Shown: positions 11,147 to 31,724, counted from the stretch's first letter. The stretch: 64,000 bases of DNA from Phycisphaeraceae bacterium (GCA_019636845.1 JAHBWV010000002.1:35655-99654); one strand, 5' to 3'. Translations and numbers: made by a program. The notes: generated by a model not told the origin, from the letters alone.

Positions 11147-11169
11147 GGTGGCACCGCTCTCCAGAGCGG
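11147..11169. repeat. Palindromic REP-like element, family A
   Basis: GGTGGCACCGCTCTCCAGAGCGG lies 36 nt downstream of the tatC stop. Near-identical copies are at 19267-19287 and 32312-32336. Confidence 0.55.
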
Positions 11170-27127: not shown

Positions 27128-28777
27128 TCACGCAACCTGGGCCACAAAGAACAGCAGCACCGACATGATCGTCCCGTTGTGCAGCGCGTGCGCGACGATC
27201 GGCGCGATCAACGAGCCCCGCCACTCACGCATCAACGCGAAGTTGAAGCCGAGCGCGATCACAGGCAGCAGCAGCAACGGCGAATAGCCGTGGATCAGCC
27301 CGAAAAAGAGCGCGGAGCACACCGCCGCCACCAGCACGCCCACCCGCGAGCGCAGGTGTCGATACAGCCCGCCCCGGAAGATCGCCTCCTCGGTGAACGG
27401 AGCCCAGATCGTCGCGAGCATGAAAAGCAGAATCGGCGCCAGCCCGCCGGACGTTGCGATATCCAGAATCGGGTTGTGGGGCGTCTCGGGGGGCTCGCCA
27501 GCTGCCTGCCTGATCGCCGACTGCACCACAATGCCGATGAACACGATCGCAAACGCCGCCATCACGAGCGGCAGTCCCGCCAGATAACAGAACACACCCG
27601 CCAGCACCTCGCGCATGATCCCCTTCCCCCGCGTCCAGCCAAGACGCTGCGCGTGCTCCTTGAGCGAAACACCACGAACCAGCGGCCAGAACGCCGCGAG
27701 CGCAACCGGCCACTGCGCGATCAGACCGATCTGCAGAATCACCCCCTCGTCCGCGTTCGGACCCATGACTGAGGCGACAATGCCCAGGCCGACCTTGAGC
27801 AACAGGAACGCGACCATGAACACCGCGAGCATCTCGATGTAGACGCTCCCGCCGGGCATTGGCGCCGCGAACGCGCGCCGTGCGCCGGGCCTCGACATCC
27901 GCATGATGGCAATGACCATGCAGACAAACGACAGCGGGATCACAACCACGAGCGCGCCCGCAAAGACGAGCAGCGCGCCGACCAACAGCTCGCCCCCGCC
28001 GACCAGCCGCGCCCGCTCCGGGTCGCTCTCGGGCCTCCCGAAGGTCAACGCGATCCGTCCGAGTCGCCCGTGCCGATTCACCAGCCGCTCGCGCTCATCC
28101 TGCGTGAGCGAGTCCGCGCTCACCGGGCCGGGGATCGGCCCCCCCGCCCCACCATAGATCGCGCGGAGCAGATCGATATCACCCACCAACTCGTCGGCCG
28201 CCTCGGGTTCGAGCGCGGGCGCACCAGATACGCGATCGATCTCGATCTCTCCGCGAACCGCGTCGAGCCGGCTCATCGCCTCCTCGGGCCCGACCAGCTC
28301 CGCCGCGGCTATCGCCGCCCGCACACGCTCGACCATCGGCTCCGCCGCCGCCCCCGCCGCCTGATCGATCTGGCGGAGCATCTCCGACGAACTCCCCGCC
28401 TGCATGCTGTTGAACGCACGCCCGGCCTTGATCATCATCGCGCTGACCATGACCTGCGGGTTGCTGTCCGCGCTCGGGGCCGACGCCTCTCCCGGCGGCT
28501 TCGCGGGCCCGCTGCACTGGTTCAACGCGATCGTGAGACAGAACAGCACAATCGCGACAAGCCACGCGATCCGCCCCGCCCCCGAAGAGCCCGGGTCCCG
28601 CGTCTCACGCCCCGGAGGCGCAACATCCTCAGAGCCCCCGGAGACAGAGGCATCCCCGCCCTGCATCCCCGCGGCGTACGGATCGCGCACACGCGGCGCG
28701 CCCGGAGTGGACCAGGGATCACGCGGATCAACCTTGCTCCCCGCACGCGGATCGAATGGGTCGGTCGTGTTCGGCAT
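27128..28777 (-). CDS. CPBP-family intramembrane glutamic endopeptidase (CAAX protease-like) with a long N-terminal region
   Basis: The C-terminal motifs are FTEEAIFRGG, LFFGLIHG and AHALHNG. Several TM helices are present. Confidence 0.8.
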   Translation of the reverse strand: MPNTTDPFDPRAGSKVDPRDPWSTPGAPRVRDPYAAGMQGGDASVSGGSEDVAPPGRETRDPGSSGAGRIAWLVAIVLFCLTIALNQCSGPAKPPGEASAPSADSNPQVMVSAMMIKAGRAFNSMQAGSSSEMLRQIDQAAGAAAEPMVERVRAAIAAAELVGPEEAMSRLDAVRGEIEIDRVSGAPALEPEAADELVGDIDLLRAIYGGAGGPIPGPVSADSLTQDERERLVNRHGRLGRIALTFGRPESDPERARLVGGGELLVGALLVFAGALVVVIPLSFVCMVIAIMRMSRPGARRAFAAPMPGGSVYIEMLAVFMVAFLLLKVGLGIVASVMGPNADEGVILQIGLIAQWPVALAAFWPLVRGVSLKEHAQRLGWTRGKGIMREVLAGVFCYLAGLPLVMAAFAIVFIGIVVQSAIRQAAGEPPETPHNPILDIATSGGLAPILLFMLATIWAPFTEEAIFRGGLYRHLRSRVGVLVAAVCSALFFGLIHGYSPLLLLPVIALGFNFALMREWRGSLIAPIVAHALHNGTIMSVLLFFVAQVA

Positions 28778-28816
28778 GGGCAGAGGGTATCGGCTGGGCG
28801 GAGCTTGGAATACGAA

Positions 28817-28860
28817 GAGAACACAGAGGACGCGGAGGAATCAGAGGACCGCGGAGGAAG
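28817..28860 (-). repeat. Family B repeat cluster (inverted orientation) left of the RAYT gene
   Basis: The plus strand reads gagaacacagaggacgcggaggaatcagaggaccgcggaggaag. This is the reverse complement of cttcctccgcggtcctctgattcctccgcgtcctctgttctc-type units. Confidence 0.5.
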
Positions 28861-29148
28861 CCAAGAGCACTCACCACTCGGCTCGCAGAGGCATGCGCAA
28901 GAGCGGAACCCGCAGGGAGACAGGGTGAGAAAGGATCAGAAGGAAAGGCACGAGAGCGACACAGGCGTTCCGCCGCGGAGCGGCGTGCGGCGGTTGCCAG
29001 CGGTCAGTGAGGGGTGGAGCCCCGAGCGCAACCCCTGGAAGGCGGCTTCAACTTTCTCCGCTGTTCGTTGCTCCTTCCTTTGATCGCTCCGGCAGGGGCA
29101 AGCGGTGAGCGCATCGGGATCAGGCATGCTCTGGCGCGGGAGGATCTC

Positions 29149-29595
29149 ATGCCAAGCACATGGTCACAGGTTCTGCTGCACATTCTTTGTTCGACCAAGA
29201 GCCGCACGCCGTCGATCGAGACGGACGTTGCTGATGATCTGTATGGCTTCATCGGTGGGATCGTGCGTGATGAGGACGACATGCTGCTTGCGATTGGTGG
29301 GATGCCCGATCATGTCCACATGTTGGTGCGCTGGGGAACCGACAAAGCGATTTCTGAGTTGATGCGACATGTCAAGACACGATCTTCGCGATGGATGCAC
29401 AAATCACGCGGCGTCAGCGCGTTCGCGTGGCAGGTCGGTTATGGCGTGTTCTCCGTGAGCCAATCGCAGGCGGAGGGAGTGAAAGCGTACATCAGGAGTC
29501 AGCCGGAGCATCACGCCAAGCGATCGTTCAGAGAGGAGTTGGTGGCGCTGCTGAAGGCGCATGAGGTGGAGTATGACGAGAAGTATCTGGATTGA
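29149..29595 (+). CDS. rayT: REP-associated tyrosine transposase (RAYT; IS200-like Y1 HUH transposase)
   Basis: The HUH motif is MPDHVHMLV and the Tyr region is FAWQVGYGVFSVSQSQ. The C-terminus FREELVALLKAHEVEYDEKYLD is typical of COG1943-type RAYTs. The start is set at MPSTWSQVLLHILCSTKSR. It is a single copy with no TnpB. Confidence 0.8.
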   Translation: MPSTWSQVLLHILCSTKSRTPSIETDVADDLYGFIGGIVRDEDDMLLAIGGMPDHVHMLVRWGTDKAISELMRHVKTRSSRWMHKSRGVSAFAWQVGYGVFSVSQSQAEGVKAYIRSQPEHHAKRSFREELVALLKAHEVEYDEKYLD

Positions 29596-29653
29596 GGCTG
29601 GAGGTTGCCGCGTGCCCCTGCTGGGGCGCGCGGAGAAAAGAGGAAGGGGATGT

Positions 29654-29683
29654 GGCGCCGCTTTCCAGAGCATGCGCGGTGCC
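29654..29683. repeat. Degenerate REP-like hairpin right of the RAYT gene
   Basis: GGCGCCGCTTTCCAGAGCATGCGCGGTGCC. Its core CCAGAGCATGC (29665-29675) is the inverted copy of GCATGCTCTGG (29124-29134), which lies 15 nt upstream of the RAYT ATG. Confidence 0.45.
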
Positions 29684-29893
29684 TGACCGTAGGGGGCGGC
29701 ACGCGCTGACCCCTGGTAGCCGCGGCTGAACAAAAACGGATACCCGTCGGGTCTCATGAACATCGCGCCGCTCGCTGAACCCGACCCCCTCCCCCTCGAC
29801 CTCTTCGTCCCCACTCCCCCCCCACGCCCCCCACCCCTATCCCCCTTCCCACCAACCACTTCCAACAATCTTCCACATACCAAACAAAACCCA

Positions 29894-29922
29894 TTGACAG
29901 ACCAAAGCCCATGACGTACATT
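29894..29922 (+). promoter_or_regulatory. Near-consensus sigma70-type promoter
   Basis: TTGACA (29894-29899), a 17-nt spacer, then TACATT (29917-29922). The ORF ATG at 29933 lies only 10 nt after the -10, which implies a leaderless or near-leaderless mRNA. Confidence 0.5.
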
Positions 29923-29932
29923 ACCCGTACTC

Positions 29933-30982
29933 ATGGTCGCCCACACCGCGACAACTCCCGGCTCCACCGCCACCGACCCGCCTCGGGTCAGCGCTCCCTC
30001 TGCTCCATGTTGTTCTCCACCACGCCACACACTCGACGATGCGGAGTGGGCCGACCCGCGCGACCGCCGCGCTACGCACGACGCGCGTTTCCTCGACGAC
30101 GCCCCTTCCCCCTCTTCTCCTGATTCGTCTCCTCCGTGGCCCTCCGTGGCCCTCTGTGGTGAACCCGCCTCTTCCCCGTCTCCCTCCGCGTCCTCCGCGG
30201 CCCTCCGCGTTGAGTCCTCTTTCGCTTCGCCTTCCCGCACCATCCCCTTCAACCCCTCCCCCGAACAACTCCACGATGTCCTCAACGACATCGTCTCTCC
30301 CTACGCCTCGCTCGTGGACGTCGCCGCCAACAACAACACCACCGTCCACGCCCTCAGCGCGTGGATCGCCCTCAGCGAGACCCAGGCCATGCTCGACCAG
30401 ATCGAGCAGGCCGCCTACCGCCGCGCCCGCGTCTCCGCCGCCTGCCTCCTCACCGACGCCGTCAACTCCCTCTCCTTCACCCTCCGCGCCCACGTCGATG
30501 CCGAGAGCAACGAACCCCTCGGCCGCTCCACCGAAGCCCTCCACATCCGCCAACGCCAGCGCACCGACGCCCGCAAGGCCTCCTGGCTCCTCTACCGCAT
30601 CGCCCGCGCCTACCCCGCCATCCCCATCGATCCCAACACCCTCCGCTTCATCCACACTCTCAAACGCGAACGCGACGAGCAGCTGTCTCATAGAACCTCT
30701 CGCGTCAGCGAGCGGACCGCCTCTCGGGTGCCACTGGTTCCCGCCGAGCGCAGCGAGGTGGAACCAGTGCATCACGCGCACAACTCCGCGTCTGACGCAC
30801 TCCACGACCTCCCCCTCGCATCGTCGCTCCACGACGATACGGACTCAACCCCGAACGTCAGCGAGCGGACCACTTCTTCTCCGTGGCCCTCTGTGGCCCT
30901 GAGTGGTGAGACTTCCCGCTCGCGTCCCCCAGCACCTTCCACTTCCGCCTCCGGCGCTCCCCCTCCCCCCGCCGCGGCGTGA
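29933..30982 (+). CDS. Hypothetical protein; only the central ~215 aa look like genuine coding sequence
   Basis: There is strong C-ending codon bias in this frame from about 30216 to 30690 (FNPSPEQLHDVLNDIVSPYASLVDVAANNNTTVHALSAWIALSETQAMLDQIEQAAYRRA...). The N- and C-terminal parts are low complexity and are built from family B repeats. The true start and stop are uncertain. Confidence 0.4.
   Translation: MVAHTATTPGSTATDPPRVSAPSAPCCSPPRHTLDDAEWADPRDRRATHDARFLDDAPSPSSPDSSPPWPSVALCGEPASSPSPSASSAALRVESSFASPSRTIPFNPSPEQLHDVLNDIVSPYASLVDVAANNNTTVHALSAWIALSETQAMLDQIEQAAYRRARVSAACLLTDAVNSLSFTLRAHVDAESNEPLGRSTEALHIRQRQRTDARKASWLLYRIARAYPAIPIDPNTLRFIHTLKRERDEQLSHRTSRVSERTASRVPLVPAERSEVEPVHHAHNSASDALHDLPLASSLHDDTDSTPNVSERTTSSPWPSVALSGETSRSRPPAPSTSASGAPPPPAAA
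30128..30210 (+). repeat. Family B repeat cluster
   Basis: tctcctccgtggccctccgtggccctctgtggtgaa, followed by further cctccgcg units. Confidence 0.5.
30877..30910 (+). repeat. Family B repeat
   Basis: ttctccgtggccctctgtggccctgagtggtgag. Confidence 0.5.
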
Positions 30983-31286
30983 ACACTCCTCCCATCCGAC
31001 CAACGTCTGGACCACCCCTCCCCGAGGGTCTACTGTTCTCTTCCCACGGGTCGGACGGAGTCCGGCTTCTGGGGCGTTCGGGTTGAGGCGGCCGCTTTCC
31101 AGCGGCGGCACCGGCCCGAGCGAAGAGCACACAAGTCTGCCGGCTTCATGGAAGGCCGGCCCGCCCCGCCCGGCAGGCGGCGAACCGAACCCCCATCCGG
31201 GCTGGCGAAGTGGCACATGCCATCGCTCGACCGGAACCAGGGCCAGAACCGTTTAGCGCCGGAAGCGTCCGGCGGAGGCAGATCCG

Positions 31287-31724
31287 ATGATGCGTCGTCA
31301 GACTTACATGGCAAAGAACGGCGAGGTGCCCCGCACCTGGCGCGTGGTCGATGCCGAGGGGCAGTCGCTCGGCCGCCTCGCCGTTGATGTGGCCACCGTG
31401 CTCATGGGCAAGCACCGCCCGGAGTACACCCCCCACGTCTTCTGCGGCGATCCGGTCGTCGTCACCAACGCCTCAAAGGTAGTGCTCACGGGCAAGAAGG
31501 CGCAGCAGAAGGTTCGCAAGCACTACACCGGCTACATCAGCGGCCTGAAGACCGAGACCTACGAGTCCGTCATGCAGCGGCGTCCCGAGACGCTGATCGA
31601 GGACGCGGTGCGGCGCATGCTCCCCAAGAACCGTCTCGGGCGCGTGATGATGAAGAACCTGAAGGTGTACAGCGGCACCGATCACCCCTACGCCGACAAG
31701 GGCCTGAAGGCGTTGAACGCCTGA
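31287..31724 (+). CDS. rplM: 50S ribosomal protein L13
   Basis: RTWRVVDAEGQSLGRLAVDVATVLMGKHRPEYTPHV...GDPVVVTNASKVVLTGKK aligns with bacterial L13. Confidence 0.93.
   Translation: MMRRQTYMAKNGEVPRTWRVVDAEGQSLGRLAVDVATVLMGKHRPEYTPHVFCGDPVVVTNASKVVLTGKKAQQKVRKHYTGYISGLKTETYESVMQRRPETLIEDAVRRMLPKNRLGRVMMKNLKVYSGTDHPYADKGLKALNA

Follow-up and report, generated by a model that had tools for sequence, protein, structure and literature searches.

The question raised by this locus is whether a small transposase-like gene and the short repeats around it form one functional unit. The gene, at 29149-29595 on the plus strand, encodes a Y1 (HUH/Tyr) endonuclease and lies in a window of 64,000 nucleotides (nt), the whole stretch of DNA analysed here, which corresponds to C2:35655-99654 of the four-contig assembly (G000; 3.67 Mb, 64% guanine plus cytosine, GC) of a Phycisphaeraceae bacterium. 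An earlier note, made from the sequence alone, had taken it for a single repeat-associated tyrosine transposase (RAYT), bracketed by an inverted 11-mer and by inverted clusters of a second short repeat, and had suggested that these were the repetitive extragenic palindromic (REP) sequences it mobilises. Our analysis partly confirmed that observation and partly supported the interpretation. The gene is probably an intact Y1 endonuclease gene of the type called subclass 1.2, set in an eroded REPtron-like unit whose hairpins would be the substrate of the enzyme, with the 11-mer incidental and the second family, a set of 9-nt repeats, unrelated to it.

The identity of the protein was investigated with profile searches, motifs and an alignment to the ISDra2 TnpA structure (2XM3). 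Its 148 amino acids (aa) matched Pfam PF01797 (Y1_Tnp) with an E value of 2e-23 and 83 bits, above the gathering score of 23, and both the HuH motif and the catalytic tyrosine were present, as expected of the IS200-like Y1 enzyme proposed earlier. In the alignment, HuH corresponded to H55-V56-H57 (29311-29319, plus strand) and the catalytic tyrosine to Y114 (29488-29490, plus strand), the first residue of a YIRSQPEHH motif (29488-29514, plus strand); a WQ motif occupied residues 94-95. The HVHML noted earlier was present within DHVHML. The stretch GYG..SVS, which had been taken for the tyrosine region, was also present (WQVGYGVFSVS), but it is the W motif, and the tyrosine is Y114 in YIRSQ. 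The NCBIfam IS200/IS605 equivalog (NF033573) scored above its cut-off (63.3 bits vs. 55), whereas REP_Tyr_transpos (NF047646) fell well below (28.6 bits vs. 80). Matches in the PDB profile search at E ≤ 0.01 were confined to IS200/IS605 TnpA proteins, of which ISDra2 (2XM3) was the best; the E. coli RAYT structure (PDB 4ER8, the code named in PMC6006769) was absent from them.

Quentin et al. (2018, BMC Genomics 19:475; PMC6006769) describe subclass 1.2 by a median length of 148 aa, DH[IV]H, WQ and YIKNQKEHH (Y---Q--HH), with low-identity intragenomic copies and no properties of an insertion sequence (IS); in their table it averages 1.7 copies per genome, comes mostly from Cyanobacteria and Bacteroidetes, and is entered as "REP: no". 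Class 2 RAYTs, in the same paper, carry the tyrosine motif Y---NP. All subclass 1.2 diagnostics of their Table 1 were found in the window protein (148 aa, DHVH, AWQ and YIRSQPEHH), the assignment being made by motifs, and Y---NP was absent, with YIRSQPEHH in its place. The pattern Y...Q..HH was retained at 76 of 80 homologous loci. Judged by its sequence, the gene is therefore of the IS200-side subclass 1.2 type and not the canonical class 2 RAYT that had been claimed; the "RayT" names carried by homologs at JGI seem to have been given generically and not on the strength of a test.

The gene was not alone in its genome. A tblastn search of G000 returned seven intact copies and one fragment, 42-48% identical to the window protein and each ~148-150 aa long (the window gene is called par0 below, and its paralogs par1 to par6), and a Pfam profile search gave 11 Y1_Tnp loci in all, including three distant Y1 genes. 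No pair exceeded 48% aa identity, and no near-identical copies (>95%) were found in G000. The census therefore describes neither a single gene nor an IS-like set of identical copies; "single", as the earlier note had it, holds in the window as far as examined. A TnpB (PF07282) profile search of the whole genome found nothing, while control genomes gave matches, which bears out the earlier claim on this point. The low identity typical of subclass 1.2 was thus seen in G000, with two 98% identical copies in a sister species (G004, a complete genome) as the exception, whereas the seven intact copies and one fragment did not match the tabulated mean. Between the window gene and its G004 copy (L011:4111-4554, L011 being the G004 locus), the ratio of nonsynonymous to synonymous substitution rates (dN/dS) was 0.15, and the gene is therefore functional and under purifying selection.

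Evidence for a hairpin partner came from the surroundings of related genes. In G004, the Y1 gene stood at the same place and its flanks were clean inverted repeats. The arms gave matches of TTCCGCCGCGGAGCGGCG...GGTAGCCAGGGGT with ACCCCTGGCTACCGCAGC... (37 nt at 86%), of CGCCCCGGCAGGGGCACGCGG with its own complement (21 nt at 100%) and of AACCCCTGGAGAGCG with CGCTTTCCAGGGGTT (15 nt at 93%), and the clean arm GGTAGCCAGGGGT...ACCCCTGG was accompanied by a GCCCCTGCCGGGGC hairpin. Directly downstream of the ortholog, the right-hand unit was tandemly repeated with a 304-nt period (L011:4559-5330), forming an array of hairpin, purine tract and REP units that held six copies of the CCGCAGCACGCTGCTCCGCAGCGG hairpin. 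Inverted arms of 28-51 nt were present at all eight loci of relatives. A wider survey, restricted to one genome per species, yielded at least 594 loci, the best 66 of which with 300-nt flanks were scored for inverted matches. At 58 of the 66 loci the score lay above the 95th percentile of controls (median 61 vs. 18). For G000 itself, random 300-nt flank pairs served as the control and gave a mean best inverted score of 19.7 (standard deviation 2.7, 95th percentile 24, maximum 30). The survey loci came from at least six phyla, among them Planctomycetota, Acidobacteriota, Verrucomicrobiota, Chloroflexia, Bacteroidota and Fibrobacteres. In most of the 19 arms inspected, ~6-10 nt separated a small GC hairpin from a GTAG-type foot, which was followed by a long hairpin; the foot was commonly (T)GTAGCC, with variants, and the stems differed by compensatory changes (CCACGGGT/ACCCGTGG, CCAGGGGT/ACCCCTGG and CCGGGGGT/ACCCCCGG). 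Inverted hairpin repeats at 58 of 66 homologous loci contradict the entry "REP: no" for subclass 1.2 (PMC6006769). Both that entry and the mean of 1.7 copies describe what had been sampled in 2018 and do not define the subclass.

In the window, the bracket of the Y1 gene was a composite inverted repeat (28968-29099 and 29610-29728), described here on the plus strand. In the left REP-like arm, an outer hairpin, TTCCGCCGCGGAGCGGCG (28968-28985), was followed by a long one, GGTTGCCAGCGGT...ACCCCTGG (28992-29038), which is eroded, with the foot GTTG instead of GTAG and one stem mismatch. This outer part (28968-29038) aligned to the clean G004 arm and had a fold z score of −0.5 in the window vs. 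−2.9 in G004. Further in came a spacer rich in pyrimidines (29046-29086) and then hp1', a degenerate hairpin (CTCCGGCAGGGGC, 29087-29099; z −0.3). A 5' leader (29100-29148) with a ribosome-binding site GGGAGG (29138-29143) led into the gene; its motif (T/C)AT(G/T)CT..GCGGGAGG was also found upstream of par1, par3, par4, par5 and the G004 ortholog. On the right, the inner arm opened with a stable hairpin, hp1 (GCGTGCCCCTGCTGGGGCGCGC, 29610-29631), which as single-stranded DNA had a fold of −13.3 kcal/mol (z −4.3; none of 200 shuffles as good), followed by a purine-rich spacer (29632-29655) and a REP-like long hairpin, CGCCGCTTTCCAGAG...ACCCCTGGTAGCC (29656-29728; z −1.9), orthologous to the distal G004 REP copy (L011:5217-5300). 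A hairpin and a purine tract after the stop codon were also seen in par1 to par5. The inner arms paired as inverted repeat I1 (29068-29105 vs. 29608-29645; 38 nt, 74%), the G004 counterpart of which was 100% complementary over 21 nt. Inverted-flank scores were 39-98 for par1 to par4 and par6, against the control maximum of 30.

Dispersed copies of these hairpins were scarce. The gene-proximal flanks of the Y1 gene were found nowhere else in G000, an outcome that the earlier note had itself named as refuting its reading. The cognate REP hairpin word occurred once in G000 vs. 16 times in G004, where 13 of the 16 lay beside the two gene copies, and G004-type REP words were essentially absent from G000 outside the locus. 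No cognate population of REPs, or of REP doublets forming hairpins (REPINs), was found dispersed through G000. The locus thus appears REPtron-like from its arms and its TnpB-less, non-duplicated gene, which keeps part of the RAYT-like behaviour proposed earlier, but it is without dispersed cognate REPs, and neither of the two repeats named earlier is its REP. Two candidates for cognate REPs, the commonest flanking 16-mers, were rejected. One, GGAGCCCCGAGCGCAA (11 copies), belongs to a separate, unrelated hairpin family, AAGGGAGCCCCGAGCGCAAGCTCGGGG, half of which is shared by the left arm; the other (13 copies) is a C-rich tract. The AAGGGAGCCCCGAGCGCAAGCTCGGGG family (8-bp stem, GCAA/GCGA loop) was itself dispersed over ~20 sites on contig C1, one of them (617686-618811) a five-copy, 281-nt tandem array.

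These results are consistent with a unit that would read, from left to right, outer hairpin, GTAG-type foot with a long covarying hairpin, pyrimidine tract, small GC hairpin, leader, gene, and then the mirror image. By analogy with IS608 and ISDra2 TnpA and with E. coli TnpA-REP, the enzyme would bind the flanking hairpins in single-stranded DNA and cut and rejoin at the foot. Hairpin units would thereby be copied, deleted or amplified rather than the gene moved, and REPs arrayed in tandem with a 304-nt period, as next to the G004 ortholog, are what such activity would be expected to leave. In G000 the unit is eroded, both feet and one stem being mutated and the left inner hairpin weak, while the gene is still under purifying selection.

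Several results weigh against an eroded REPtron-like unit. The inverted-flank score of par0 was 27, at about the 97th percentile of the controls, so that the bracket would not be convincing on G000 alone. REP families of the Y1 paralogs were tiny, with 0 to ~14 copies, and the GTAGCC-stem foot was not enriched genome-wide in G000 (23 matches vs. 28 in the control), only CCACGGGT[GT] being so (92 vs. 39). The listing of subclass 1.2 as without REP by Quentin et al. counts in the same direction. Between G000 and G004, the Y1 gene had a dS of 0.72, 2.6 times that of both neighbours (0.28 for the CPBP-type protease gene and rplM, whose products, CPBP and L13, were 93% and 99% identical). The window and G004 copies, despite their synteny, may therefore be related by something other than simple orthology, or a replacement of the gene may have occurred. 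The non-coding upstream arm was 77% identical to that of G004, and the raised dS points to a possible replacement of the allele or a mutation rate that is higher at this spot. Finally, the two G004 copies are 98% identical in nucleotides, which counts as IS-like if the 95% threshold of Bertels et al. is applied.

Extended to the whole branch, the same interpretation would turn subclass 1.2 into a second lineage associated with REPs, one lying on the IS200 side and made up of low-copy "mini-REPtrons" that amplify locally and do not seed large REPIN populations, with the window copy at a late stage of decay. We offer this generalization only tentatively, as it is somewhat less likely to hold than to fail.

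An ordinary autonomous IS200-type insertion sequence, with the flanking hairpins as its ends and the whole unit transposing, is an unlikely alternative. The profile and structure matches described above lean towards it, as do the 98% identity of the two G004 copies, the patchy distribution of the gene among relatives (12 of 31 genomes), its GC content (56%, in a range of 56-60% for the G000 copies, vs. 64% for the genome) and its location in a variable hotspot. Ends of IS200/IS605 elements have subterminal hairpins on one strand, and we know of none with terminal inverted repeats. The flanks here are inverted, unlike such ends, for which PMC6006769 mentions only "small subterminal DNA hairpin structures". 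Near-identical copies, moreover, were missing in G000, where the paralogs stood at 42-48%. The duplicated G004 block measured 1653 nt and ran from a palindrome of family A inside a gene of the B family (named after open reading frame (ORF) B0, at 29933-30982 in the window), two thirds of which it included, to a REP. These asymmetric ends mark it as a repeat-bounded segmental duplication and not as an IS with symmetric ends. Y---Q--HH and the C-terminal tail also mark the non-IS subclass 1.2, and a dN/dS of 0.15 was maintained over a dS of 0.7.

Recruitment of the Y1 protein to a host function unrelated to the repeats, with the hairpins as insulators, terminators or mRNA stabilisers, is unlikely too. 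It would account for a gene kept under purifying selection while its G000 flanks erode, for the strong hairpin directly after the stop codon, for the conserved leader motif and for the lack of a dispersed REP population for the window copy. A terminator, however, needs one side of a gene only, so the mirror architecture, GTAG-type foot and covarying stems, kept across phyla on both sides, count against it, and no T-run followed the right hairpin. The REP units were also tandemly amplified beside the G004 ortholog, with a few far away.

The 11-mer was investigated as the element that the earlier note had placed around the gene. All three words stood where the note had reported them, with GCATGCTCTGG at 29124-29134, the reverse complement of GCATGCTCTGG at 29665-29675 and the related word CAGAGGCATGCGC at 28886. 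In the flank test, an inverted match over a perfect 11-mer amounts to a score of 22, below the control 95th percentile of 24, and the pair is therefore at chance level. The 11-mer occurred eight times in 3.67 Mb, two of these at the locus, against ~2.6 expected (a rough estimate from base composition). A genome-wide family of the 11-mer or of a related 13-mer was ruled out, with eight and two copies, respectively. It was not kept in the G004 ortholog, which has GTATGCTGTGG upstream and CCAGGGGTTTG downstream. The upstream 11-mer sits inside the leader motif and the downstream one inside the right REP-like arm, and the two are therefore not symmetric or mirror partners. The pair, in short, is incidental.

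The 9-nt periodic repeats also stood where the earlier note had put them, the left cluster inverted relative to those further right. The left cluster, (CCTCYGYGN)n at 28812-28861 on the minus strand, has four related copies elsewhere in G000 and is not part of the Y1 unit. On the plus strand, a doublet of type A (...GTGGTGA, 30128-30162) and type B (...GCGTTGA, 30179-30213) lies in frame inside B0, with 16-26 related copies genome-wide, and a third cluster, of type A (30875-30909), lies in the variable 3' part of B0. G000 contained 109 such clusters vs. 16 in a reversed-sequence control, and they often occurred as A-then-B direct doublets. Adjacent clusters were on the same strand 26:4, and the repeats are therefore not REPIN-like doublets. 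No cluster was found within 3 kb of the other seven Y1 paralogs, whereas 22 of the 109 lay within 1 kb of 12 B-family loci, which make up 0.8% of the genome (25-fold enrichment). The A+B doublet was absent from the 96% identical G004 ortholog of B0, leaving the window copy a net 78 nt longer, in frame. The 9-nt family thus turns over quickly, through insertions or expansions. It is unrelated to the Y1 gene and tied to the ORF-B gene family.

A canonical RAYT mobilising the 11-mer motif, the 9-nt repeats or both as a REP/REPIN population is very improbable and already contradicted by these results: both repeats are in place and the 9-nt family is dispersed, but the 11-mer is neither above chance nor conserved, the 9-nt clusters are mostly same-strand direct repeats without hairpin potential, enriched around B loci, and the protein lacks the class 2 RAYT signature and fails its hidden Markov model.

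The eroded REPtron-like unit was compared with known systems. The window gene resembles subclass 1.2 (PMC6006769) in its 148 aa, DH[IV]H, WQ, Y---Q--HH and ~30-aa C-terminal tail, in the low intragenomic identity without near-identical copies in G000 and in the absence of tnpB. It differs in its planctomycete host, its 7-8 copies and the inverted repeats that nearly always bracket its homologs. With REPtrons and their RAYT or TnpA-REP genes (E. coli YafM; Nunvar 2010; Ton-Hoang 2012; Bertels & Rainey 2011) it shares a Y1 gene without tnpB, a gene not multiplied as an IS, REP units that can be arrayed beside the gene (as in G004) and several diverged genes per genome, each with its own hairpin type. 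Inverted GTAG-type hairpins, a further REPtron trait, are weak around the window gene and clear at the G004 ortholog and the other paralogs. Unlike REPtron proteins, the window protein is on the IS200 side (Y---Q--HH, REP_Tyr_transpos below cut-off), its arms are eroded, and the cognate REPs of its genome are tiny families or absent, compared with the tens to hundreds of REPINs of a RAYT. IS200 (subclass 1.1) includes its closest sequence and structure relatives, with the HuH and Y---Q core and ~150 aa; the companion tnpB, optional for IS200, is absent from G000. In contrast to IS200, G000 has no near-identical multi-copy set, its Y1 protein carries an additional HH motif and a tail, and inverted flanks take the place of one-stranded subterminal hairpins. 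Duplication was seen only in G004, where dispersed palindromes bound a larger segment.

Di Nocera et al. (2013; PMC3733652) reported GTAG repeats and REPtrons or TIRtrons in bacteria of the Planctomycetes-Verrucomicrobia-Chlamydiae (PVC) group and in Acidobacteria, with GTAG-tagged stem-loops in Planctomycetes and Verrucomicrobia and REPtrons in species without a matching REP family. The TIRYT genes of their TIRtrons are alike by description, being Y1 genes of Acidobacteria and PVC bacteria with inverted repeats, and in-frame insertion of repeats into genes is described as well; TIRYTs are, however, placed in subclass 2.1 by PMC6006769. Since GTAG repeats and REPtrons were already described, this kind of locus is known, and the Y1 locus is an ordinary, slightly decayed member of it. 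For the window, the gain is little more than a corrected annotation, in which an eroded REPtron-like unit with an IS200-like Y1 gene of subclass 1.2 would replace the solitary RAYT and its REPs. The 66-locus survey suggests that this little-studied Y1 branch has a conserved hairpin partner, and the clean sister-genome arms offer a defined substrate on which the biochemistry of the branch could first be probed. The finding also bears on how often IS200-type enzymes may have been converted to non-mobile, hairpin-processing genes.

The Y1 gene and B0 are the two genes between the CPBP-type intramembrane protease gene (27128-28777, minus strand) on the left and rplM (L13, 31287-31724) on the right. 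This island is ~60% coding and therefore not gene-poor, as the earlier note had called it; B0 should be annotated as a real gene, and the short repeats as other families. B0 encodes 349 aa (29933-30982, plus strand), with an N-terminal helix-turn-helix-like three-helix module and in-frame dispersed repeats. Its sigma-70-like promoter, TTGACA-17-TACATT (29894-29922, plus strand), matched at 10 of 12 positions (shuffles had a mean of 0.3 sites) and was kept in the G004 ortholog, which lies at G004:C1:3216613, 118 kb from the island. The 12-locus family, to which the window contributes the locus at 29838-30770, includes 11 paralogs at 27-36% identity (tblastn), found on C1 at 67062, 209418, 610481, 918092, 1654922, 1965106, 2416350, 2617734, 2820582, 2938257 and 3355050. 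Four of the paralogs were near-identical to each other (86-95% in nucleotides), and a ~1.1-kb single-gene unit has therefore multiplied recently. Family members shared a conserved promoter, an MVAH start and long helices, and their variable linkers were dispersed repeats translated in frame. Homologs of B0 occurred only among close relatives. Searches of Pfam, PHROGs and PDB profiles gave nothing significant, and an AlphaFold2 model (predicted local distance difference test 77) gave only weak TetR-like matches in Foldseek (E > 0.4). A palindrome, GGTGGCACCGCTCTCCAGAGCGGTG, was found ~25-34 times genome-wide (e.g., C2:46808, 54924 and 67973, at 11154, 19270 and 32319 of the window). Several B genes carry it in frame close to their 5' end, and the duplicated G004 block has it at one of its two ends.

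The insertion proposed in the earlier note was borne out by genomes that lack the Y1 gene. In two other genera (G007 and G010) the site was empty, with CPBP and rplM adjacent and gaps of ~20-400 nt. Another species of the same genus (G003) carried a different Y1 gene at the same site, beside the CPBP gene (L016:1156-1797, L016 being the locus on G003:C12), of 213 aa and class 2 type (HVHLIV, FWQEG, YVHRNP), plus a B gene, and G001 carried another gene upstream of rplM. The CPBP-rplM interval is a lineage-specific, rearranging insertion hotspot.

Strand composition had been offered as further support for insertion. GC skew was positive across 28.6-29.8 kb against a negative background, as had been described, but the ORF-B part had the same polarity as its surroundings. 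The skew is also weak evidence for insertion because five of seven Y1 paralogs had a G-rich coding strand whatever their surroundings, and it is at least partly a property of the Y1 gene family. The empty sites are better evidence than strand polarity.

An Rfam scan of 27-33 kb at E ≤ 1 returned no known RNA family, the sole match being a spurious microRNA at 23 bits. Elsewhere in the genome, the 16-mers CCCCTCACGCAGGGGC...GGGCGCGGATTGAAAC occurred 41-42 times each and look like the repeat of an array of clustered regularly interspaced short palindromic repeats (CRISPR), and TCCTCGACTTCCTCGAC occurred 31 times outside the window.

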